Source: Bdellovibrionota bacterium
GTDB lineage: Bacteria; Bdellovibrionota; UBA2428
Assembly: GCA_964201665.1 (NCBI GenBank)
Contig: CAXNEW010000006.1
Span: 1-60,504, forward strand
Direction of reading: 5' to 3'
DNA: 60,504 bases
The notes under the pieces were generated by a model. That model was not told where the DNA came from. It was given only the letters and a program-made list of their open reading frames with translations, and did no database searches. The position numbers were made by a program, and so were the translations under genes. Position 1 is the stretch's first letter, and every line of letters starts with the position of its first letter. This document shows positions 3,232-47,235 of this stretch, piece after piece.

Positions 3232-3306
3232 TTTTCCTGAGACTTGGTGTTATAAATTTTTTAAGGTCGAGCATGGGCAGTCGGGCAACGAAAAGGGATC
3301 TCAAAA

Positions 3307-3407
3307 GATCGAGCCCAGTGTATAGATCTGTTTGAATCACTACACTTGAGGAAGAACCCGAGCCAGTCCCCTAGAGGACCAAAGCCCTTTCACTCCCCGA
3401 CAAAACG
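3307..3407. repeat. Hairpin-element copy 1 (conserved loop core, non-complementary arms)
   Basis: GAAGAACCCGAGCCAGTCCCCTAGA at 3351-3375 is the exact reverse complement of 5810-5834; GACAAAACG at 3399-3407 is the reverse complement of 12032-12040. Confidence 0.85.
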
Positions 3408-3521
3408 AGCTAACAGGGTTTCCTCTGCATTAAACAAAAATTGTTTACTAGGTGTAGAAAGTTTAGACAGGATCTCTGGTTTAAGTTGTTGAATTAATGA
3501 GTAAAAATTTAAAAATAGAGA

Positions 3522-3537
3522 CGGTACGCCTCTTGCA
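3522..3537 (+). promoter_or_regulatory. Putative sigma54 (-24/-12) promoter of the lipoprotein gene
   Basis: CGGTACG-CCTC-TTGCA; IHF-like TAAGTTGTTGAATT at 3482-3495 and TGT-N11-ACA dyad at 3453-3469 upstream. Confidence 0.6.
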
Positions 3538-3595
3538 TTAAATATCCAAGTACTGGACTCTATTTGTTTTTAAAAAGCTCCAAAGGAGAAAGTAA

Positions 3596-5767
3596 ATGAG
3601 TTTAAATTATACGAAAACTTTCAATGTGTTGGGTGTTGTATTGGCATTGTCCGTTGTGGGATGTTCCAAACGCCCTCAAGCTCCAGTTCCAGTCACTCCT
3701 GCTGAAGATGATCGAGATCGGGTTTCTGTAGATTTGAATATTGGCAAGTATTTGAAGCCAGATTTGTCCCTGGGTGAACAAGAGAAAGTAATTGTTCAGG
3801 AATTATCTGAAGGGAAAAAAATTAGCCATCGTGGGCTTACAGAACTCTTTGTTGCTCGTCATCAAAAAACAAGATCCGAAATTACCGGTGCAGATACCCA
3901 AAGCACCTCAAATTTGGAGACGATCGTGTCTCAGTTGAAGGCAAAGGGTTCAGAATCCCCCGATCAGTTTAAAAAAAGCTTGGAGGAGGTTTTAGCGAGT
4001 GCCTCGGGAAAAAGTCTTGAGAATTTTTCTTATAACCGCGATGCCGTTAATATTTTTGATTATCTCAACGCGGGATTGTTTCAGTGCTATTCGGCGACTT
4101 CTTTATATATGGTTTCACGACGTTCTGTGATTTCGGGAGAAGATTTTCTGAAAGATTCGCCTTTCATAATTTATGAAAGTGGTCATATAAAATCTGGATT
4201 TCGAAATAAAGACGGTCAGGTTGTTGCCCTTGAACATACCGATTTGGGGCCCGCTCGTGAAACATTCACAAGTGAAGCGGAGTTTGAAGAATTCAGGCAG
4301 AGTTGTGATATCCGAGTGGTGGATTCTAATAAGTGGATCTTAAACGAGATTTTTAAAGATTCACTTGATTTAAGTGATGCTGAAAAACGCTTGGCCTATT
4401 TGACCGAAATGTTTGGAGAAAAATACGCCCATTGTTTTGAGGGCCAAAGTCCCATGAGTACAGGCGATGGCTCGGGATCTACAGGACTCAACGGAAGTGA
4501 TTTAGGGTTTGGATCTTCAAATGCCCGTACCGGAAATATTAAGCCTGACTTTAGCGAAGAAAAACTCTTCAAACCGAATCCCGTTAGATTTTCTGGCGGA
4601 GTGTTAGGCTCAGAAAATAATTTGGTTCCAGGTGTTGTTGTAGGGTCTGAGGTTTTTGTTGGAGGGGGTGAAAAACCCAAAGAGCCCGTGGTGATTGATT
4701 CAAAACCTAGCGCTGAAAGTGAAAAACCTTTGGTAAAGAAATTGGAGTTCTATGACCCCCTAACCAAACTCACATGGCTCGATATTCATAGCCCCGAAGC
4801 AGTTAAATCCTTTTATGAAAAGATGAACTCCAAGCCAACCGTTGAGTACGACGGGAAAAAATACCCGGATTATTTTAAAGCAGCCGAAGCTCTTTGTGTA
4901 AGTCTTGGTCTTGAAGCTCCTACCAAAGGAGATTTTTTAATTGCTCTTGGAAATAAAGATAAAGACGTAAATCTGGAGCTTAAAAAAATGCCGGGTATGG
5001 ACGAGGGCTTGTTTTGGACGTCATCGCCAGTGGAAAAGGGCGGTAATTTAATTGCCGCTGAGGAAATTTATCCAATATTGGGGACGATCTTTGTCGTTGA
5101 ACTTGGAAAAGAGGGCTACGCCGATCGTTTCAGCGACGGATTTTCTGTTCGCTGCGTGAGCCGCCCGAAACTGAGCTCCCTAGAACTCAAGGCCGAAATT
5201 CAAAAACTTAAAGGAATTGCGTCCGTAAAAAGTGGGGATGTGATTCTATTCAAGCCTCTCGACTATGAGGAAATCTCTGACAAAGAATTCTTGGCCCGAG
5301 TAAGGCTTCTCAATCAGTTTTTGAAAGTCGCAGATGAGAGGGGCCTTCAAGAAAAAGAAATTGTTGGAGCAAATGTTTACGCAAGTGTTTTCTATGATTT
5401 GAGTTATATCGACTGGTTTGCGAAAAAAATCTTAGGTTCTGAAGGAAATGGTTCCTACAAAAGTCCTGCGGTTGTTTTTTTTGAAAGAGCTCCAGTCGAA
5501 GTTTCACAATACCTTTTTGATAATGGCCGAGGCATGCACACGGGTGGTACCCAATATCTAGGAGCTATTGTTTTTTTAAAAAATGAAATTTGTGCAAAAT
5601 CGGATTTAGATCCTAAGTTTGCCAAGCTCTGCATTGAATTGGCGCAGCATTTGAAGTCGTTATCTTCCGGCGAATGGGGGCCGCGAGGGATCAGTGCGAT
5701 CCATAGCTGGGAAACTGAAAACAAACTTCGCGAGGGTAGGCCCCAGCCCGTACCCAAATGGAAATAA
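3596..5767 (+). CDS. Large lipoprotein: putative transglutaminase-like Cys-His-Glu domain plus DUF1566/Lcl-like lectin-fold domain
   Basis: Lipobox VVGC; QCYSAT..IIYESGHI..ALEHT; YDPLTKLTW..AEALC..FWTSS..FSVRCV; AGGAG RBS. Confidence 0.6.
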   Translation: MSLNYTKTFNVLGVVLALSVVGCSKRPQAPVPVTPAEDDRDRVSVDLNIGKYLKPDLSLGEQEKVIVQELSEGKKISHRGLTELFVARHQKTRSEITGADTQSTSNLETIVSQLKAKGSESPDQFKKSLEEVLASASGKSLENFSYNRDAVNIFDYLNAGLFQCYSATSLYMVSRRSVISGEDFLKDSPFIIYESGHIKSGFRNKDGQVVALEHTDLGPARETFTSEAEFEEFRQSCDIRVVDSNKWILNEIFKDSLDLSDAEKRLAYLTEMFGEKYAHCFEGQSPMSTGDGSGSTGLNGSDLGFGSSNARTGNIKPDFSEEKLFKPNPVRFSGGVLGSENNLVPGVVVGSEVFVGGGEKPKEPVVIDSKPSAESEKPLVKKLEFYDPLTKLTWLDIHSPEAVKSFYEKMNSKPTVEYDGKKYPDYFKAAEALCVSLGLEAPTKGDFLIALGNKDKDVNLELKKMPGMDEGLFWTSSPVEKGGNLIAAEEIYPILGTIFVVELGKEGYADRFSDGFSVRCVSRPKLSSLELKAEIQKLKGIASVKSGDVILFKPLDYEEISDKEFLARVRLLNQFLKVADERGLQEKEIVGANVYASVFYDLSYIDWFAKKILGSEGNGSYKSPAVVFFERAPVEVSQYLFDNGRGMHTGGTQYLGAIVFLKNEICAKSDLDPKFAKLCIELAQHLKSLSSGEWGPRGISAIHSWETENKLREGRPQPVPKWK

Positions 5768-5783
5768 CGAAAAAATACGTATT

Positions 5784-5867
5784 GTCGAGAAACCAACAGG
5801 TATTGAGCTTCTAGGGGACTGGCTCGGGTTCTTCCCCTAGAAGCTCAATACCTGTTGGTTTCTCGAC
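5784..5867. repeat. Hairpin-element copy 2: perfect 35-bp inverted repeat, 14-nt loop CTGGCTCGGGTTCT
   Basis: Arms 5784-5818 and 5833-5867 are exact reverse complements. Confidence 0.95.
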
Positions 5868-5893
5868 TGTCCAAGCTCGACCCATCAACTTCT

Positions 5894-5935
5894 CTAAAGA
5901 TCCCATTCCCAGGCGATGCGGGGGCCGAAGCTGAC
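5894..5935 (-). pseudogene. Duplicated 3' end (VSFGPRIAWEWDL*) of gene 6732-8384; att-like remnant
   Basis: 42-bp direct repeat of 6732-6773 with 6 mismatches, all synonymous third-codon positions. Confidence 0.92.
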
Positions 5936-5995
5936 ATTTAGTAATTTGCTTTGGCCCCTCTTAGGGGATGGCTTTTACAGTACGAGAAATAGGTC

Positions 5996-6024
5996 TTGAA
6001 AAGGGTCTCAATATAGGTCATAAT
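5996..6024 (+). promoter_or_regulatory. sigma70-type leaderless promoter of the TA operon with repeated operator-like boxes
   Basis: TTGAAA-17 bp-CATAAT, 7 nt before ATG 6032; ATAGGTC repeated at 5989-5995 and 6013-6019. Confidence 0.65.
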
Positions 6025-6031
6025 TTAGTCC

Positions 6032-6271
6032 ATGAAAAATCTGAAAATTTCTGAGCTTAAAGCTGGCCTTTCTAAGGCTCTGGAAAGGGTTGAGGCGGGA
6101 GAAGAAATTCTTGTGACCGATCATAATAGACCCATTGCCAGATTGAGTTCTGTAAAAAAGGTTCCACCCTTACCTAAGGAACCCGTAGTTTGGGACTTTG
6201 AGCGATCTGTCCTAAAGAAGGGGTCTCTGTCTTCGCACGAACTTATTCGGAAAATTCGAGATGAAGAATAA
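6032..6271 (+). CDS. Phd/YefM-family antitoxin
   Basis: KISELKAGLSKALERVEAGEEILVTDHNRPIARL; overlaps the downstream toxin. Confidence 0.92.
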   Translation: MKNLKISELKAGLSKALERVEAGEEILVTDHNRPIARLSSVKKVPPLPKEPVVWDFERSVLKKGSLSSHELIRKIRDEE

Positions 6272-6704
6272 GCACCATTTTTATTGGGATACGTCGGCTT
6301 TGGCTTCAATGCTTTTTGGAGAATCCGATGGAAAAAAGCTCATTTCCTGGGCAAAAAAAAATGAAGGTCTTCCGGGATATACATCTTTTTTTACATGGAT
6401 AGAGCTCGAGTCAGCTCTTCAGAGGCGGGTCAATTTAGGCGAAATTATGATCGAAAATTTGCCAAGTGTTCAGCTTGCAATTGAAACCTTAAGTCAAAAT
6501 TTTGCAATTCTTTGGCCTGATGTTTCGGTAACTGCAGAAGCAAAAAGCCAAGTTGCAAAGATGGGTCTTAGGCCTGGTGACGCCCTTCAGCTTGGAAGTG
6601 CCCTACTTGCAAATCGAGAAGTTGGAAATGTGGCTTTTATATGTCTTGATAAAAAACTTTCGCAAGCCGCTGCTGCAAATGGCCTCAGGTGCCCTGAATT
6701 TTAA
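6261..6704 (+). CDS. vapC: VapC-like PIN-domain toxin
   Basis: YWDTSAL, ELESAL, LRPGDALQLGSAL and FICLDKKLSQAA PIN motifs. Confidence 0.9.
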   Translation: MKNKHHFYWDTSALASMLFGESDGKKLISWAKKNEGLPGYTSFFTWIELESALQRRVNLGEIMIENLPSVQLAIETLSQNFAILWPDVSVTAEAKSQVAKMGLRPGDALQLGSALLANREVGNVAFICLDKKLSQAAAANGLRCPEF

Positions 6705-6731
6705 TCATGCACAAGGCGGACTTGTAGGCTG

Positions 6732-8384
6732 CTAAAGATCCCACTCCCATGCGATGCGTGGTCCAAAGCTTACCTGAGTGAAAACCGTTCGGCGGCCTCG
6801 GCTTGTGAGGCCATTGTGGAGGGCTTCGCCCTCGCTGTGGGAGAGTCTTTCGGCTTTGAAGTTGGCGCCGATAAGAAAGCGATGGACGTCTCCAATTTTT
6901 CTCCGCACAAAAAGATCTAAATCTATGTTGTATGGAAAAAAATAATAAGGGCGGCCCCGACCAAAGTAGTCACCCTTATCCATAAAAAGTGGAAAATAAA
7001 GATAAAGCGCCGAGGATAGATCATACTTGGCTTTCCAGCCTCCCCATCTGATTTCTCCGCCTGCAACTAAACTCACAAGACCATAGTCAATAATATCCAT
7101 TGAGTAAGGTTCGACAGAATTTTTTGGACGGGCCTGTTCTAGACGCCGATAGGAGAGCAAACCCTTGAGCAAAATGGGTAGAGTGCCACCCCAGGGTTCC
7201 CATTTGTAGGTGGGACCCAGGTCAAGCTGTCGATGCACAATTGCAAAAGGCTGATGGGTCGTACCATAAAGAGAGTTTGAGTTATCAAATTTGAATCTAT
7301 CGTACCTAAATAAAATTTCACTACCCCAAGGATTCCAGATTTGACTTTGAACTCGACTGCCGACTGAGAAGGCCCCGATGGGATCTAGAAGTCCCTGATT
7401 TGTAATTTTTTCAAAGCCTGTCATTTGGTCGTTAGAAAGAGACCTCGTTCCCCATGTGGGACCACCAGAAATAAAGCGCCAGGTTGTTCCAATGTATTGC
7501 GAGTGAAAACCCATGGGATCTTGCTCGACTAAAATAGTTACGCTTTCTTGGGAGAGCTGTTTTTCGTCAATATAATCTTTAACCGTAATTTGATAGCGGC
7601 CGGGAGGCAGAGGAGGTAACCAACTTTCAGTTTCACCAGAAACTTCAAGGTGCGTTATGCGTCCGGCGGGCGAGGGTTCAATGCGATAGATATGTATTTG
7701 TGATTCTTCACCGGGGACCGTTCGAATCCACCTCAGTTTGTGGGGCTCAAATGCTGTTAAAATATCTCGCTCCACGGGAAACAAAATTCGAGGATTGCTT
7801 GAGGGTTTAATTCGAATTTGAAACTGAGAGATTGCGGAATCTGAAATAACTGAGCCAAGGGCTCGCGCCGAAATTTTTACTTTCCAGTTACCCTCAATGT
7901 TTTGTGGTAACTGAAACCTGGTTAAGTTCACGATTTTGACTTCAAAATTCTTTTCCCCCGGCTTTTGAACTTCAACCTGGTAGTCTTCTGCGCCCTTGAC
8001 TCCCTTCCATTCCACAACAATCGGAATGGATAGTGATGAGATTTCAATTGTTTCGTCTTGTTTTGGCGAACGAAGCTCGGGACTTTGAGATTTAACGAGT
8101 TTTTTAACTGCCGGAGACCAAGCACCAGCCAATCCCCCCTTGTCGAGAGGCCGTACTCTAAAAAAATAAAGGCCCGCTGGAATTTGGCTATTGAAAATAG
8201 GATTTTGACTTTCTCCCTGACGGATTAAAGTGTCTGGTTTAAAACTGCCGTCAGTAGAGAGTTCGAATTCGTAAGCTTGGGCTCCGGGAATAGGGTTCCA
8301 GCGAATCTCGAGTTCGTCGGCCCAAGCAAAACTTGAAAAGCTGAGTCCTAATGTAAACACCAAACTCAAAAAAAATTTAAACAT
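6732..8384 (-). CDS. Secreted/outer-membrane protein: tandem Fn3-like domains plus C-terminal beta-barrel-like region
   Basis: Signal peptide; WNPIPGAQAYEFELS..YFFRVR..WS Fn3 pattern; alternating aromatic strands ending IAWEWDL. Confidence 0.65.
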   Translation of the reverse strand: MFKFFLSLVFTLGLSFSSFAWADELEIRWNPIPGAQAYEFELSTDGSFKPDTLIRQGESQNPIFNSQIPAGLYFFRVRPLDKGGLAGAWSPAVKKLVKSQSPELRSPKQDETIEISSLSIPIVVEWKGVKGAEDYQVEVQKPGEKNFEVKIVNLTRFQLPQNIEGNWKVKISARALGSVISDSAISQFQIRIKPSSNPRILFPVERDILTAFEPHKLRWIRTVPGEESQIHIYRIEPSPAGRITHLEVSGETESWLPPLPPGRYQITVKDYIDEKQLSQESVTILVEQDPMGFHSQYIGTTWRFISGGPTWGTRSLSNDQMTGFEKITNQGLLDPIGAFSVGSRVQSQIWNPWGSEILFRYDRFKFDNSNSLYGTTHQPFAIVHRQLDLGPTYKWEPWGGTLPILLKGLLSYRRLEQARPKNSVEPYSMDIIDYGLVSLVAGGEIRWGGWKAKYDLSSALYLYFPLFMDKGDYFGRGRPYYFFPYNIDLDLFVRRKIGDVHRFLIGANFKAERLSHSEGEALHNGLTSRGRRTVFTQVSFGPRIAWEWDL

Positions 8385-9997
8385 TATTCATCTCCCTCAA
8401 AAACAAAGTTTGGCCGCTGAAAGCTCGCAGGAGTTCTGACTTTAGTAGAAATAAGTGAGAACTTCCGCATACCGGCAGAAACTCCGACTTTGCCTTCCTC
8501 AAAAAGAGCCTTAACTGTCCACTCGTAATTTCCAGGAGGCGGGATATTTGTGACAAGTATTTCATTTGCCGAAGATTCTAACTGAATTTTAAAGGTAGAG
8601 CCTTTATCAGTGGACTGAATTTCAACTAAAAAACTCTTCGGCCGGTAGAATGAATTTTTTTCAAAATCCCAGGTAAATTTTAGACCCGACTTGTCGATCG
8701 CTGAAACACTCAAATTTCTGCCTGCAGAAGGCGAGATCAGCTGTGGAGGAGTCTTTAAAATTTCAGCCAAAGAAAACTTTGACGGATCAAAACTAAGTTC
8801 CGAAAAAGAACTCATTTGAGCACCAGGAAAAAGGGAGCGGGCCTGAATCTTGCCTTGTTTTAGATTTTTTATAAGACCAGATGCAATCTCGAGTTTCCAA
8901 AGGCCCAGCGGGGAAATTTGTTCTTTGGGAATCACAAATTTTTGTGAACCCAATAGTATTTCTATACCCACGGCCTGAGGGTCTTCATTTTTACCTGTCA
9001 AAAAAGATTTTTCCGGATCCATGGGGTCGAGAGACAGGCTTAAGTTTTTTGGCGCCAGTTTAGTAATATCGAGGCCCGCTTTTGGGGCTTCCTCTTGCAA
9101 AATTGATATTGAAGTCAATGCAATCAGCTGACTCTGCTTTTCACCCTCAACGAGTCGCCAAAAAAATTTCCCCGGTTTTTCAAAGGGAATTTCAAGAGCA
9201 GTGGAGTCCACAGAAAGAGGAAACTGGCCTAAAAGTTTCTTTTTTTTACCTGAAGAGTAAACTTGAATGGCTCGATTCAAGCTCGGGAGTGGATTGGTCG
9301 AGTCTACCCGGGTAATTTGAAAGGCTACTTTCAAGGGTTGGTCCCATTTAAATTTGAAAACTTGCCCAGGAGTTGGCGACAAGGCCTGCCACTGAAAAAC
9401 TTCAACTTTAATCTCTGATGTTTCTTGTGATTGAATGAGGCGCTCACCAGATTTCACTTCCTGTATTTTTCCCTCCGAACTCACAATTTTTGCTTGAGCT
9501 GCGCCCTGACTTTCCACTGAAATTTCACCTGTTTGAGCCTGCTTTTGAATGCGGACCCCGCCCTTATTCCCAACCGAAACAATCATCGTCTTACCCACTT
9601 GGGCTTCGACTTTTCCGGAGATGAAGAGATCACCACTCGCTAAATTTACTTTGAGCCCGCTTTCTCCAGTTTCTAAAACGGCAAGACTATCGGGCTGAAG
9701 CTCGATTGAACCCAGATCTTTCAAAGTGACCCGCGCAAAAGAATTTTCACCGGTTTTGAGTGTATCTTTTTCAAATATGGGAATTCCAGTTTGGGCAGCC
9801 ACCCAAAGCAAACGACTTCGTGGACGGCGGGAAACGTCAGAGATAGCGTTTTCAATCACACCAATTTGTTTTCCGCCGCCTGTGCCCGCGTCCTCTCTGT
9901 GTAAATCTCTGAAATAAAAGCCAATAAAAAGAATAGAAAAACCAAAGCCGATTGCCAAAAGAGGTAAAGATTTTGTTTTATTTTCAGTAAGGTCCAT
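8384..9997 (-). CDS. FecR-domain protein with C-terminal Fn3/Ig-like domains
   Basis: N-terminal TM; IFEKDTLKTGENSFARVTL..IELQPDS FecR pattern; PPQLISP..FTW..GNYEWTVKA. Confidence 0.75.
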   Translation of the reverse strand: MDLTENKTKSLPLLAIGFGFSILFIGFYFRDLHREDAGTGGGKQIGVIENAISDVSRRPRSRLLWVAAQTGIPIFEKDTLKTGENSFARVTLKDLGSIELQPDSLAVLETGESGLKVNLASGDLFISGKVEAQVGKTMIVSVGNKGGVRIQKQAQTGEISVESQGAAQAKIVSSEGKIQEVKSGERLIQSQETSEIKVEVFQWQALSPTPGQVFKFKWDQPLKVAFQITRVDSTNPLPSLNRAIQVYSSGKKKKLLGQFPLSVDSTALEIPFEKPGKFFWRLVEGEKQSQLIALTSISILQEEAPKAGLDITKLAPKNLSLSLDPMDPEKSFLTGKNEDPQAVGIEILLGSQKFVIPKEQISPLGLWKLEIASGLIKNLKQGKIQARSLFPGAQMSSFSELSFDPSKFSLAEILKTPPQLISPSAGRNLSVSAIDKSGLKFTWDFEKNSFYRPKSFLVEIQSTDKGSTFKIQLESSANEILVTNIPPPGNYEWTVKALFEEGKVGVSAGMRKFSLISTKVRTPASFQRPNFVFEGDE

Positions 9998-10009
9998 GGC
10001 TTCCGTGGG

Positions 10010-10074
10010 TTTTCGGCAGATTTGCAGATTTAAGTTAGCCAGAGTCTAAGGCTTTTGGTTTTTATCGCCGAATA
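10010..10074. promoter_or_regulatory. Back-to-back sigma28/FliA-type promoters
   Basis: Minus strand TAACT-N15-GCCGAAAA (10037-10010); plus strand TAAGG-N15-GCCGAATA (10047-10074). Confidence 0.65.
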
Positions 10075-10084
10075 GACATTTGCA

Positions 10085-11863
10085 ATGAGTCTACTTTTTA
10101 ATTGGGTTTTTGGTCGTCTCCGAAATAAAATTCTTTTAGCCTTTTCTGTGCTGCTAACGGCCGGGGTGGCTTCCGTTGTATGGGTTTCGACCAGTTTAAC
10201 TTTTAGAGACTCAATGAATTCTGCTTACGCAGCTGCCGCTGAAATTTCTAAGGGGCTTTTGATTCAATTTGAGCAAGAAGTGTTTCAGGCTCAGGTAAGG
10301 TCGCGTTTTTGGGTGATGCACACTCAGGAGACTGAAAAATTAACTCAGCTCGTGCAAGGGGATCCCAACATTGGGGGAATAGCGCTTCTAAATATTCCTG
10401 AAAGAAAAATCGAAGTTCAGGCCTATAATTCCGCCTTAAGTTCTCTTCATGCAAACCCTAAACTCAATTTGACGCCCGAAGAAATTGAGGTAATCGCTGG
10501 AAAGTTTAGTTTGGAAGAAGAAACGGAGGGTTTGTTCTACCAAGTGCAAAAAATTGGAGATCAAAACTTTCATCAAATCAGCCAAGCTCTAGTAGTTGAG
10601 GGTGGAAAACTTCAAAAAGTCCTACTTACCTTTCTGGATTCAAAGCCTTTGACCCGTTCATTTGAGCAGGCCGGAGTTTATGAAAAATTTCTTTTTGATA
10701 GTGAGGGGAAAATTTTATTGAGGTCGTTTGAAACGGGTGGGCTCGGTGCACCCGTGGACTCAACATTCCCAAAAGAGTTTATGGCCCCTATTCTTTCAGC
10801 GCCAAAACAATTTAACAATACTCAAATTCGCTGGGTAACCGCAGGAGAGATGGGTCAACCCTTCATTGGTCATACCTACCGATCTCAGATTCCGGGACTA
10901 AATGTCGCGGTTCTGAGTCCTACAGTCTCACTACTGGAAACTGTTTATGCAGTCGCTAGGAGATCTGTGTACCTTGGACTAGCAATTCTCAGTTTGGCCT
11001 TAGTTTTTGGGACCCTCTTTTCTGATTCCATAGTTAAACCCTTGATTGGCCTCTTGGAGGGAACATTGAGAATATCTAAAGGCGATTTTTCATTTCGCCT
11101 GAAGGCCCAAAGCCAGGATGAAGTTTCAAGACTCACAAATGCATTCAATTCAATGGCAGAAGGTTTAGCCGAGCGCGAACGTATCAAGGAAGTATTTGGC
11201 AAATTTCATTCTAAGGCCGTGTTTCAAAAACTTCTCAAAGAGGATCGAATTCGACTTGGTGGCGAGCGACTCCCAGTTACTGTTTTCTTTTCGGATATTC
11301 GTTCGTTTACCAGCAAATCAGAGGCCATGACTCCCGAACAAGTCGTTGAAATGCTCAATGAATACATGTCTGAAATGGTGAGTGTTATTGAAAAATATGG
11401 TGGTGTCGTTGATAAATACGTAGGCGACGCGATTATGGCAATTTGGGGAATGCCTGAGCCTAATCCGGCCGTAGATGCAGAAAACGCATTGCGAGCTTGC
11501 CTTGAAATGCGAGAAAAACTTGCTGAGCTCAATGAAAAACGGAAATCAAGGGGGCAGGATCTCATTGAAATAGGAATGGGACTAAACAGCGGCGAAGTTA
11601 TAGCTGGGAATATTGGGTCGCCCTCGCGGATGGAATACACTGTCATTGGCGATACCGTGAATACAGCGAGTCGAATGGAATCACTTACAAAAGAATTTAA
11701 AACGGATTTACTTGTTTCAGAAACTACACAAAATTTAATTATAGATAAAAATCAGTTTGCTTTTGAGGGTCCCTTTGAGGCTCATGCAAAAGGAAAAGCA
11801 GAAAAAGTCCAAATTTTTGGGTGCTCGGGCCCTCGAGCAAATCAAGTTTTAGATGCAGCCTAG
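10085..11863 (+). CDS. Class III adenylate cyclase with periplasmic sensor (Cache-like) and HAMP domain
   Basis: Two TMs; HAMP (DEVSRLTNAFNSMAEGL); FFSDIRSFT, VDKYVGDAIMA, EYTVIGDTVNTASRMES; K/T residues typical of ATP specificity. Confidence 0.93.
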   Translation: MSLLFNWVFGRLRNKILLAFSVLLTAGVASVVWVSTSLTFRDSMNSAYAAAAEISKGLLIQFEQEVFQAQVRSRFWVMHTQETEKLTQLVQGDPNIGGIALLNIPERKIEVQAYNSALSSLHANPKLNLTPEEIEVIAGKFSLEEETEGLFYQVQKIGDQNFHQISQALVVEGGKLQKVLLTFLDSKPLTRSFEQAGVYEKFLFDSEGKILLRSFETGGLGAPVDSTFPKEFMAPILSAPKQFNNTQIRWVTAGEMGQPFIGHTYRSQIPGLNVAVLSPTVSLLETVYAVARRSVYLGLAILSLALVFGTLFSDSIVKPLIGLLEGTLRISKGDFSFRLKAQSQDEVSRLTNAFNSMAEGLAERERIKEVFGKFHSKAVFQKLLKEDRIRLGGERLPVTVFFSDIRSFTSKSEAMTPEQVVEMLNEYMSEMVSVIEKYGGVVDKYVGDAIMAIWGMPEPNPAVDAENALRACLEMREKLAELNEKRKSRGQDLIEIGMGLNSGEVIAGNIGSPSRMEYTVIGDTVNTASRMESLTKEFKTDLLVSETTQNLIIDKNQFAFEGPFEAHAKGKAEKVQIFGCSGPRANQVLDAA

Positions 11864-11918
11864 TTAGCAGAGCGCTAAAACCGAGCGACTCGTTACAGAT
11901 TTTTTCTTGCGGTACACC

Positions 11919-11994
11919 GAAAAATAAAAGAGATACCTTCTTTGGGGGAAGAACCCGAGCCAGTCCCCCAAAGAAGGTATCTCTTTTATTTTTC
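11919..11994. repeat. Hairpin-element copy 3: perfect 31-bp inverted repeat, loop AGAACCCGAGCCAG
   Basis: Arms 11919-11949 and 11964-11994 are exact reverse complements; may also act as a terminator. Confidence 0.95.
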
Positions 11995-12037
11995 TTTCCT
12001 TCCTTCCTACCTACTTAGGAATTCTGAAAACCGTTTT

Positions 12038-12121
12038 GTCAGACTGATTACAAGTCTTAGGTTCCTAGGGGACTGGCTCGGGTTCTTCCCCTAGGAGCCT
12101 AAGACTTGTAATCAGTCTGAC
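12038..12121. repeat. Hairpin-element copy 4: 35-bp inverted repeat (one G-T pair), loop CTGGCTCGGGTTCT
   Basis: Arms 12038-12072 and 12087-12121. Confidence 0.95.
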
Positions 12122-12187
12122 TGCCGTAGCTCGATCGAGGACCAAATTCTCGATCAATCTAGAAATTTTTGTGGGGGGACTTTATTT

Positions 12188-13239
12188 TTATTCGACAATA
12201 TCTACGAACACTTTTTGAGTTACCGTTTGGGTTCCGTCTGAAACTTTCAAACTGAATGAAGTTGAACCCACCTTGAGGGGATGACTCGGTGTGGTTTTTA
12301 TCTCAAGGGTGCGATCTGAATCTTGAGACCCCAAGAAAATATTTGAGGGGTCAAGAATTGTTTTGTTTTCAATTTCCAAAATTAAATTGATTCCCGGTGG
12401 AAGTGTATCTGAATCGCTAATTGTGAATTTAAGTTTTGGGTGCCCCGAGAGAGAAGAAACTTTGAGCCTGTCGGGCAAGCCTTGAACTAAGGGAGGGGAG
12501 GGTGCTCCAAAATCAACATTTGTTTCAATTTCGTGGCGACTTTCGGCCCCTTCGGGGTCGCGCGCCTCAACAACTATGTAAAATTTCCCAGGATGGGAGG
12601 GCGGCTGGGAGATCAAAAGCTTTCTTTTTTTCCTTCCCCTTCAATTTTTAGGGAGCCCTCGGGAAATGCCGATGTCTGAGTTGCTCTAACTCGCGTGGTG
12701 ATTTCATTTTCATTGGACTCAACATCATTTACCCAGATTTCTAATGTGGGTTCATATTTTTTACCGGCCTTCAGGTCCAAGCGAGTGGGGCCTTGAATTT
12801 GGGGCGAATCATTCACAGCCTGAACAAAAACTTTAAAGATTTTTTCCTGAGTACTGTAGCCATTGTAAACAATAACCTTTATCAGGGCCTCACCGAAAGT
12901 ATCACTTTTTGAGGAAACCTCGACAGTAAAAACGCCAACTTCTTTTTGATACTCAACATTAGGATCAGGGACGATATCCCTATTTGAGGATCTGGCTTTA
13001 ATAACTAATTTTGAAGGATCTGATTCGGAACCCTTTACGGTAAATGGTAAATAGATAGGGTCTTGGTCTTCAAGTAAAATTTGATTTCCTAAATTCGAAA
13101 CGTCCACGGCTCTTTCTTTTAGGTCGGCCAAATTAAGGGAATTTTTGTCGGGAGTTAATTTTAGGGGTTGTGTGCAGGAAACCAAAATAAAAAGTATGAA
13201 AAAATGAATTTGGCTATTTTTGAAAAAAGTATTCCCCAT
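12188..13239 (-). pseudogene. Lipoprotein with tandem cadherin/Ig-like domains, split by a frameshift in an A7 run
   Basis: Lipobox LVSC; VQAVNDSPQI and LKVSDGTQT repeats; adding one A to the run at 12625-12631 joins ORFs 12613-13242 and 12188-12616. Confidence 0.7.
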
Positions 13240-42933: not shown

Positions 42934-43032
42934 TTGTTTAAAAAATTCAAGTTTTTTCAGGTTAGAGTCGGAGTGAAATACTATATGAATGGGGACGACG
43001 CATGGCTGATGTTAACGGAAATGAGCTTTTAA
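42934..43032 (+). pseudogene. Third, more decayed copy of the rimI 3' end, overlapping the pyrK start
   Basis: Translates LFKKFKFFQVRVGVKYYMNGDDAWLMLTEMSF*; contains the pyrK ATG at 43002. Confidence 0.85.
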
Positions 43033-43826
43033 GCTTTCACGCAAAAAGTTGGTCTGAGTGGCCGGGGCGATTGGTTAAACCCCCCCGACGGGGGTCAGAG
43101 ATTGATTTTCATTTTAATATTGAGGTTCCGGGTTTTCGTGCCTGGACTCCAGGACAGTTTGTGATGCTCAGGTGGGGCCAACATTTAACGGGTCGACCCT
43201 TCGCCATTTTTGAATGGAAACAGGCCGGGCCGAATTCTTCTCAGCTTCACTTGCTTATTCGAAATGCCGGTGAGGGCACAGCTGAGTTTATAAAAAATGC
43301 TCAAGCCCAAGATTTAGTTTGGGTGCGCGGGCCTTTAGGTCAAGTTCCGTTTGCGGCTGATCTGACTGAAGATCTTAGGCCTTGGATTTTTTTAAGCGAG
43401 GGCGCCAGGCTTGCCGGTGTTTTTGCGATGATTCATTTGCGACGTAAACTTCAACTTCAGCAGCAACTTCCAACTGATTTTTGGTGGCACACGGAGACTC
43501 GAAAAGAATTCATGGACGCTGAAATTCATTCGCGGGCGTACGTTAAACCCGATGCAATTGGTTTTTCTGAAACCCAAATTCTGATACCTGAAAATCTTGA
43601 TCTCACAAAGTATTCAAAGGTGATTGCAGTGGGTAGTGAAGACTTTCAAAATTCGTGGGCAAAACTTGCCAACCAGTATTCAAACCTTGATGGAAATTTA
43701 TGGCTTCGTAGAGACGCGCCCATGGCTTGTGGAATCGGACTTTGTTTTAGCTGCACGGTTGAGACGGCTCAAGGGCCCCAGCGAAGTTGCCTTGAGGGAC
43801 CCTGGTTTGAGGGGAGTCTCAAATGA
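43002..43826 (+). CDS. pyrK: Dihydroorotate dehydrogenase electron-transfer subunit (divergent)
   Basis: PGQFVML, RPFAI, RGPLG, MACGIGLCFSC..SCLEGP [2Fe-2S] motif. Confidence 0.85.
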   Translation: MADVNGNELLSFHAKSWSEWPGRLVKPPRRGSEIDFHFNIEVPGFRAWTPGQFVMLRWGQHLTGRPFAIFEWKQAGPNSSQLHLLIRNAGEGTAEFIKNAQAQDLVWVRGPLGQVPFAADLTEDLRPWIFLSEGARLAGVFAMIHLRRKLQLQQQLPTDFWWHTETRKEFMDAEIHSRAYVKPDAIGFSETQILIPENLDLTKYSKVIAVGSEDFQNSWAKLANQYSNLDGNLWLRRDAPMACGIGLCFSCTVETAQGPQRSCLEGPWFEGSLK

Positions 43827-47115: not shown

Positions 47116-47235
47116 GTCATCCCGACCGGCGTTTAATGTCATTCCGACCGGAGGGAGGAATCTCTAACGTTCTTGGCTGCTAAGCGCGGGGAGATCCCTC
47201 ACGTTGTTCGGGATGACTGGTCGGCTCGGGATGAC
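47116..47235. repeat. REP-like nested inverted repeat between convergent genes
   Basis: GTCATCCCGA (47116) and GTCATTCCGA (47138) pair with TCGGGATGAC (47208, 47226); inner GAGGAATCTC/GAGATCCCTC. Confidence 0.85.

Follow-up and report, generated by a model that had tools for sequence, protein, structure and literature searches.

A conserved stem is the usual criterion by which short palindromes dispersed through bacterial genomes are recognised and sought. Repetitive extragenic palindromes (REPs), for example, are described in PMC3733652 as conserved palindromes with GTAG or CGTC tags. REPINs contain two conserved REPs around a variable spacer that, according to PMC3116915, retains both its length and the capacity to form a hairpin by compensatory changes. 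A constant loop on a covarying stem is reported for the PBC-28-3 motif (PMC8632094), as are conserved loop motifs on covarying stems for the multicopy cuckoo RNAs (PMC4615179), and both papers interpret the loop as docking a protein or pairing partner. Here, we describe a hairpin family found in a 60,504-nt stretch of DNA from a Bdellovibrionota bacterium (positions 1 to 60,504 of contig CAXNEW010000006.1, assembly GCA_964201665.1; hereafter the window, on contig C6). The family carries a constant 24-nt tip on arms that are free in sequence and nevertheless paired, and it escapes searches by conserved stem. The source is a metagenome-assembled genome of 1.81 Mb in 95 contigs, 68% complete and with 44% G+C. 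A first, sequence-only reading of the window had proposed that conservation is the inverse of that in ordinary REPs, with the tip fixed and the arms variable but paired, and this was borne out by an alignment of 14 copies.

The whole assembly was searched with the pattern GGACTGG-N6-TTCTTCC at up to one mismatch, resulting in 22 matches, which reduce to 20 loci. One match (contig C34) is a chance occurrence and has no stem, and two others belong to one hairpin that is divided between two contig ends (end of C19, start of C53). Fifteen loci are full hairpins, three are cut by contig ends and two are disrupted (the first window copy and one copy on C69); two of the 15 full hairpins form a 1-kb tandem duplicate on C2. 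Contigs from four sequencing runs end at hairpins of the family, and none joins across a hairpin; loose ends among them reveal a minimum of two additional arm types. The copies are approximately 100 nt long, lie on 15 contigs in both orientations and are all intergenic, and a covariance model of the family retrieved no new member in its own genome. The constant unit is a 24-nt apical stem-loop, G-N-GGA / 14-nt loop CUGGCUCGGGUUCU / TCC-N'-C, which consists of four invariant closing pairs and one covarying pair around the loop. Among the 14 independent full copies, the covarying pair is G:C in seven, U:A in four and C:G in three. None of them shows a change in the loop or the GGA/TCC pairs, except for two variants of the loop hexamer, which reads CTCGGG at 17 of the 20 loci, CTCTGG at one and GCCGCG at two.

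An ungapped alignment of these 14 copies comprised 35 pair columns and 490 cells. The arms span 29-39 bp and share a mean pairwise identity of 0.37 (range 0.19-0.81), and the stems contain no bulges. Standard pairs fill 96.1% of the cells, compared with 58.2% in 500 shuffles, none of which scored as high, and pairing dropped to 42-55% when the partner column was slid by one to three positions. Changes on both sides were found for 31 of the 35 stem pairs. In all 14 copies, an arm agrees with the partner in its own hairpin at 28-31 of 31 positions, versus 13-26 of 31 for the best other copy. As each arm is closer to its own partner than to any other copy, it can be concluded that pairing is maintained in place, and recent copying from a perfect master cannot explain it. 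With a third of the genome unseen, no copy except the C2 duplicate has a near-identical sibling; since recent insertion followed by neutral decay would leave a near-identical parent or sibling, pairing must be either restored or selected at each locus. A DNA palindrome covaries on both strands, so covariation alone does not indicate an RNA.

Two further ideas about the arms were tried and rejected. One was that the arms are captured or guide sequences; a search with the 5' arms of 19 loci against the whole genome found nothing below E=0.05 except the query and the arm paired with it, A-type relatives (see below) and a small number of chance matches that were short and A-rich or 15-20 nt long. 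An alternative cloverleaf or T-shaped fold, built from small palindromes within the arms, was likewise discarded, as the best internal stems measure 3-5 bp (combined p=0.23 versus shuffled arms).

Asymmetric flanks divide the family into three subfamilies, and the orientation of the loop relative to these flanks is constant in every subfamily member. Subfamily A has GAAAAA..TTTTTC stems of 31 bp with A/T tracts and the 3' flank GGTGTACCG, subfamily B has the form CGTWTT-GTC...GAC-TGYC with 35 bp, and subfamily C the form ACGTATT-GG...CC-TGCC, also with 35 bp. The stem bases therefore differ by subfamily (GTC/GAC, GG/CC and GAAAAA/TTTTTC), and a head-to-head arrangement of one A and one B copy is found both in the window and on C4, with remnants on C18 and C12. 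Arm identity between different subfamilies is at chance level, as would be expected if only a mobile centre of about 20 nt inserted into the tips of pre-existing, unrelated hairpins or terminators, which would account for loops that are the same while the arms are unrelated. Cyanobacteria reportedly contain tiny mobile repeats of 21-27 nt (Elhai et al. 2008), and the genome does contain ordinary long-stem two-way terminators as possible targets. However, arms and asymmetric flanks are homologous within a subfamily, the loop orientation is fixed, the B and C stems measure 35 bp in eight copies, and the covariance model detected no loop-less homologue with an intact hairpin. We therefore regard a mobile centre as highly improbable.

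A strand-specific signal is found in the stems. Read on the strand carrying the loop as CTGGCTCGGGTTCT, the 471 stem pairs comprise 456 Watson-Crick pairs and 15 imperfect ones, namely 11 G:U, one A:C and three others. The 11:1 ratio of G:U to A:C deviates from the 1:1 expected without strand specificity (binomial p=0.006). In 13 of 14 copies, the predicted RNA fold of the sense strand is more stable than that of the antisense strand, with a mean difference of 5.4 kcal/mol (Wilcoxon p=0.002). When GAAA was substituted for the loop, so that only the stems were compared, ten copies favoured sense, three were equal and one favoured antisense (p=0.02). Predicted helix stabilities lie between about -48 and -78 kcal/mol. 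All but one of the 11 G:U pairs sit 8-16 bp from the loop, in the most variable part of the stem, and this cluster is read as the fastest-changing zone and not as a designed weak spot. With regards to replication, the loop-sense strand is the G-rich strand at 12 of the 20 loci versus eight, without a link to local GC skew; this independence makes a replication-strand effect unlikely, and a leading- or lagging-strand orientation was rejected on the same count. The strand signal fits selection on a transcript, selection on one DNA strand or a transcription-linked C-to-T bias, and two of the three accounts imply sense transcription.

This signal bears on the question of how the arms are kept alike. 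The sequence-only reading had suggested, as one option, that one arm is actively re-templated from the other, and the 14 independent stems of 29-39 bp, with their compensated changes and strand-specific G:U pairs, provide a clean natural data set on stem pairing that touches the debate between stepwise compensatory selection and template switching. Under a purely mechanical upkeep, template switching during replication (quasipalindrome correction) would copy arm from arm, and the 20-bp centre would be a protein-binding site in double-stranded DNA. PMC8794818 and PMC5941160 document that template switching makes and repairs perfect inverted repeats, so a known process could preserve perfect arms, or make them perfect again, with no need for stepwise selection. 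The arms of the family are saturated with change and yet almost perfect, and the genome holds other long perfect inverted repeats. As a mutation process, however, it gives no account of the invariant tip, and it predicts no preference of G:T over A:C on one strand, while the observed ratio is 11:1. Template switching can also invert spacers, according to PMC8604942, whereas the loop orientation is constant in every A-type and B/C-type copy. The two C2 duplicate hairpins are identical down to the same three arm mismatches, which have thus stayed uncorrected since the duplication, and the disrupted first window copy was not repaired either. Mechanical upkeep as the full explanation is therefore improbable; the proposed re-templating rests on a published mechanism and may contribute, but alone it predicts no strand bias.

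The genomic setting was determined for the 17 copies with both neighbours known, of which eight lie between convergent, four between tandem and five between divergent genes, so that 12 of 17 are found behind at least one gene end. Three of the four tandem-context copies are co-oriented with their neighbours and one is antisense to both. Pfam analysis of 33 flanking open reading frames (ORFs) returned unrelated housekeeping, signalling and transport genes (including a histidine kinase, flagellin, isocitrate dehydrogenase, ABC proteins, a rhomboid, a cyclase and a PIN protein), no match for nine, and no recombinase; a common functional theme among the neighbours was thereby rejected. A stem followed directly by a T-run was found for five A-type copies (C4:42933, window copy 3, C12:4534, C18:5834 and the half copy C69:2175), the A-like copies on C56 and C19 likewise have a T-tract after the stem, and T-tracts occur on both strands. 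By this layout, the A-type copies look like two-way intrinsic terminators, with a stable stem set between an A-tract and a T-tract and between gene ends. They differ from intrinsic terminators in their invariant 14-nt loop, 31-bp stems and common 3' flank; in the rest of the family, the B and C copies have no T-tract, and five of 17 copies have divergent placements. A simple terminator scan was uninformative for hairpins with 14-nt loops, and the family escapes it because its loop limit is 3-8 nt.

Considering these results, we tentatively read the family as a lineage-specific, REP-like dispersed intergenic repeat that would act mainly as a transcribed hairpin whose tip docks one trans-acting factor, an account that fits best, at somewhat less than even odds in our estimate. 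A structured RNA with a protein-binding loop had been one option of the sequence-only reading, and among its options this one agrees best with the data, with the 11:1 G:U strand bias and the missing link to GC skew in its favour. The hairpin would be transcribed and read in the CUGGCUCGGGUUCU sense, and the very stable helix could protect or end transcripts; A-type copies with their A and U tracts may act as two-way intrinsic terminators. The constant tip would serve as a sequence-specific docking site for one trans-acting factor, either protein or RNA, and it suggests that some factor in the host lineage recognises hairpin loops by their sequence. The copies must have spread as DNA, by a putative route similar to that of REPs or miniature inverted-repeat transposable elements (MITEs), and template switching during replication may help to keep the arms matched. 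In short, the data establish the anatomy, covariation, in-place maintenance, strand bias and restricted distribution, and what we infer is transcription, a docking factor, the route by which copies spread and a role as terminator or stabiliser.

A number of observations weigh against this account. The host is an uncultured bacterium of predatory type, and the whole data set is a single incomplete genome. Transcription and its strand are deduced from statistics on 12 transition-type imperfections; the G:T strand bias could stem from strand-asymmetric C-to-T mutation, e.g. on the non-template strand, and it equally fits a single-stranded-DNA function of one DNA strand. Such long perfect stems exceed the usual needs of protein-binding hairpins. 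Five divergent placements among 17 and one antisense copy among four in tandem settings are not typical of an element confined to 3' ends, the orientation relative to genes is uninformative in convergent or divergent settings, and the B and C copies have TGYC after the stem and no T/U-tract. Furthermore, there are DNA-level events: the three broken copies, at C69:2175, at C4 ~43015-43050 and in window copy 1, all break at the loop edge. On C69, the end of a rhomboid gene replaces the 5' arm, with its stop codon abutting the loop. The C4 case is an additional B-type half copy with most of the loop missing, in which the B-type flank and the 35-nt arm run to GGGGACT and are followed by a complete copy of another repeat family. 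In window copy 1, the break lies just after TCC. Finally, C7:58110-58175 is a hairpin-less paralogue of the composite A-B scaffold with the layout GTTACACCGAAAAACAAAAG - AAATTCTGAGTA - ACCGTTTTGTC - ATT - CTGCCAATGCTCGAT, recognised by two collinear 25-26-nt matches at 88% identity and a CTGCC..GCTCGAT flank; it is either an unfilled site or the product of a double hairpin deletion.

The main rival account is a single-stranded-DNA mobile element, in which a putative transposase or recombinase (HUH/Y1-like, IS110-like or of a new kind) would read the tip of a folded strand and cut at its edge; the arms would need only to pair, and so could drift with compensation. The scatter over 20 unrelated intergenic loci does need DNA-level spread, three independent breaks lie at the loop edge with another repeat inserted exactly there on C4, a hairpin-less scaffold paralogue exists, and the G:T strand bias also fits the use of one DNA strand. 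When the hairpin is removed, the flanks of the copies on C2, C10 and C30 and of window copy 2 rebuild ACGT.TTGG^CTGCCAAG, a sequence near the loop of another repeat family, so that this core looks like a preferred insertion point. Four of seven copies tested align to it (shuffle p <0.001 to 0.087) and three align elsewhere or not at all, on account of which the combined p of 2e-5 overstates the case. Together with the breaks, these junctions show a family that sits in a mosaic of nested repeats, with the tip as a fragile or targeted point in the DNA.

The enzymes that such an element would require were searched for in the assembly, whose 68% completeness makes their absence weak evidence. No Y1/REP-associated tyrosine transposase (RAYT; PF01797) was detected at E<=0.01, with six of 14 control genomes positive, and no match was found in it for the IS110 transposase (PF02371), where it has to be considered that insertion sequences often fail to assemble. 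For the tyrosine recombinases (PF00589), three matches in two genes were best assigned to XerD (236 bits) and XerC (161 bits), and the integron integrase models scored 57-95 bits on the same incomplete assembly, compared with cut-offs of 265-435. Neither a Y1/HUH (RAYT) nor a tyrosine recombinase gene adjoins any copy with known neighbours. A GTAG or CGTC tag lies within 8 nt of the stem base in two of 14 copies, at inconsistent places, and no attC-type boxes were seen by eye on the alignment, for which no pattern scan was made. No direct repeat indicative of a target-site duplication flanks the copies or the hairpin-less paralogue, and the arm ends vary between copies. An attC-like or HUH/RAYT-like substrate, another option of the sequence-only reading, is thus unsupported by the searches of the incomplete assembly, which returned XerD and XerC and neither RAYT, IS110, integron integrase, consistent tags nor boxes. 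The mobile element is further disfavoured by an orientation unrelated to GC skew (12 vs 8) and by the lack of near-identical copies apart from the 1-kb duplication, combined with nearly perfect pairing, which is unlike recent transposition followed by neutral decay. On this evidence, we consider it possible but doubtful.

Compared with the described systems, the family resembles REPs and REPINs, which are short dispersed extragenic palindromes that number in the tens, lie mostly downstream of genes and may work in part as RNA hairpins (PMC3116915, PMC3733652). It differs in that REPs fix the stem and an unpaired tag and vary the tip, whereas the constant-tip family fixes the tip and frees the whole stem; the tag is incidental (two of 14 copies), no RAYT was found in the incomplete assembly, and five of 17 copies are divergent. 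In place of the conserved 20-40-bp stem by which REPs are recognised, only the four closing pairs are invariant. As the stem and tag comparisons failed and the RAYT search of an incomplete assembly gave no match, the family was not filed under REPs. It resembles attC sites, which are recognised as a folded single strand, in that the central sequence is free and pairing and geometry are kept. attC sites have conserved boxes at the stem base, extrahelical bases and a variable length, and they form one-way cassette arrays beside an integron integrase. The constant-tip family, in contrast, conserves the tip, has no bulges, keeps its length at 35 or 31 bp per subfamily and is scattered in both orientations; it belongs to neither attC sites nor MITEs by their membership features. 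While PBC-28-3 and the cuckoo RNAs have a fixed gene relation or are stand-alone small RNA genes across many species, the present family occurs in every type of intergenic setting, forms stems of 29-39 almost perfect pairs and is known from one genome only.

This restricted distribution was established by several searches. The exact 20-mer core had six matches in 185,579 species genomes, eight in metagenome contigs and none in viral contigs; all 14 lie in GC-rich sequence of coding-like appearance (untranslated), none with complementary flanks. At up to one mismatch, the 20-mer had no match in 40 relatives, and a degenerate core gave only single matches in 16 of 400 genomes of the phylum, with a backwards-core control also yielding scattered singles. 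The covariance model retrieved a lone match (E=0.096) in 19 genomes of the same family, which are only remotely related, as the protein of one neighbouring gene shows 36-66% identity. Folding the region downstream of the cyclase gene, the neighbour of window copies 3 and 4, in six relatives revealed no comparable hairpin, the regions being too distant to compare. The checks suggested alongside the sequence-only reading thus returned 20 loci in the own genome and none comparable in relatives, and arm covariation without a family at the gathering threshold in Rfam 15, where only sub-threshold animal and plant microRNA precursors matched, on both strands; these are generic long-hairpin matches. 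Window copy 2 and copies 3 and 4 had no match among 50,697 phage records and a single insignificant one among plasmids (E=0.7). In the literature outside subscription journals, the loop, whether as written, as reverse complement or as RNA, occurred in one unrelated mouse paper only, and nothing was found on hairpin repeats in Bdellovibrionota or REPs in Bdellovibrio. With one incomplete metagenome-assembled genome, the practical weight of the family is limited for now. As a speculation to which we assign little likelihood, it could be one member of a general bacterial class of 'inverse REPs', dispersed hairpins addressed by a constant single-stranded tip and not by the stem, with a dedicated one-strand tip-binding factor per class. 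The factor might then be a new hairpin-tip nuclease or recombinase that moves the elements, or the long perfect stems might give rise to duplex small RNAs specific to each copy, the tip being the signal for their processing.

In the window, the 14-nt loop CTGGCTCGGGTTCT occurs exactly at 3353-3366(-), 5819-5832(+), 11950-11963(-) and 12073-12086(+), precisely the four copies reported by the sequence-only reading. At up to two mismatches, there are six matches, a number that no shuffle out of 100 attained (mean 0.39); the two additional ones, both with two mismatches, have no hairpin and are not family members. Copy 2 (B-type, 5778-5881, plus strand) forms 35 Watson-Crick pairs between 5784-5818 and 5833-5867 around the loop at 5819-5832, is flanked by CGTATT on the 5' side and CTGTCCAAGCTCGAC on the 3' side, and begins 13 nt past the stop of a 723-aa ORF (3596-5767). 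Copy 4 (B-type, 12030-12135, plus strand) pairs 12038-12072 with 12087-12121 (34 Watson-Crick pairs and one G:U) around the loop at 12073-12086, between the flanks ACCGTTTT and CTGCCGTAGCTCGAT. The 35-nt arms of copies 2 and 4 are identical at 20 of 35 positions, so the earlier estimate of about 20 and a single G-T pair, which lies in copy 4, was exact. The perfect 31-bp arm attributed to copy 3 (A-type, terminator-like, 11911-11994, minus strand) was recovered as well, with 11919-11949 fully paired to 11964-11994 around the loop at 11950-11963, an A-tract on one side of the stem, a T-tract on the other, and the conserved 3' flank GGTGTACC at plus-strand positions 11911-11918. Copies 3 and 4 together lie between the convergent ORFs 10085-11863(+) and 12188-12616(-). 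The flank motifs said to be common to copies 1, 2 and 4 were all located: CGTWTTGTC precedes copies 2 and 4 and its reverse complement adjoins copy 1, and CTG..GCTCGAY lies at 5867-5881, 12121-12135 and 3266-3280(-).

Copy 1 (disrupted B-type, 3266-3407, minus strand) had been described as keeping the 35-nt geometry, which holds on its 5' side only. There, the intact loop (3353-3366) plus TCC adjoins a 35-nt 5' arm (3367-3401), and the minus-strand 5' flank CGTTTTGTC at 3399-3407 shares its GTC with the arm. On the 3' side, approximately 35-38 nt of unrelated sequence are followed by a decayed loop remnant, a decayed arm and the far flank GACTGCCCATGCTCGAC at 3266-3282, so that about 70 nt, and not 35 nt, separate the GACTG..GCTCGAC flank from the loop. 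The decayed remnant reached a local alignment score of 25, compared with 15.1 +/- 2.9 (maximum 31) in 300 shuffles, and in the predicted fold the outer 5' arm pairs with the displaced outer 3' arm. It is, consequently, a disrupted copy rather than one of 35-nt geometry. Approximately 160 nt downstream of copy 2, an ORF for a PIN-domain protein of 147 aa (6261-6701, plus strand), the start of which is overlapped by a small ORF (6032-6271), possibly forms with the latter a candidate toxin-antitoxin pair.

Other repeats were observed in the same genome. In a classical REP-like family, the stem ..CCAACGGTGTTCGTGCAAA.. is conserved and the loops, 6-40 nt long, are variable; this family is the mirror image of the constant-tip family in its conservation pattern. 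It comprises 96 half-sites (at up to two mismatches) on 21 contigs, often as inverted pairs (e.g. C10:8259-8326, C15:9140-9216 and C30:12545-12611), none of them on the window contig, and has no RAYT found in the incomplete assembly. The tandem duplication at C2:41300-42600 (~1032 bp) contains one of its pairs together with a C-type hairpin and a 161-aa ORF without a Pfam match. A third hairpin repeat combines the stem GTCATCCCGAGCGAAGCGAGGGATC, including compensated variants, with a conserved 31-nt loop ..AACGTGCTTGGCTGCCAAGA.. that has a 5-bp mini-hairpin of its own. It occurs at 47166-47185(+) of the window and at ~21 other loci, e.g. C29:7978-8058, C94:1439-1519 and C4:43050-43135; the 22 loop matches (up to three mismatches) exclude one that overlaps a C-type copy, and a few have no stem. 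The longest perfect inverted repeats of the assembly, C43:5568-5654 (37 bp, 13-nt loop) and C7:33683-33786 (32 bp, 40-nt loop), do not carry the CTGGCTCGGGTTCT loop. In one relative of the same family (C22 of its assembly), inverted repeats of ~25 nt, CACCACAAAAAAGAGGG.TACCC.., enclose ~150 nt and lie ~70-260 nt past the stop of the cyclase relative, from which it follows that other hairpin or MITE-like elements exist in this bacterial family.

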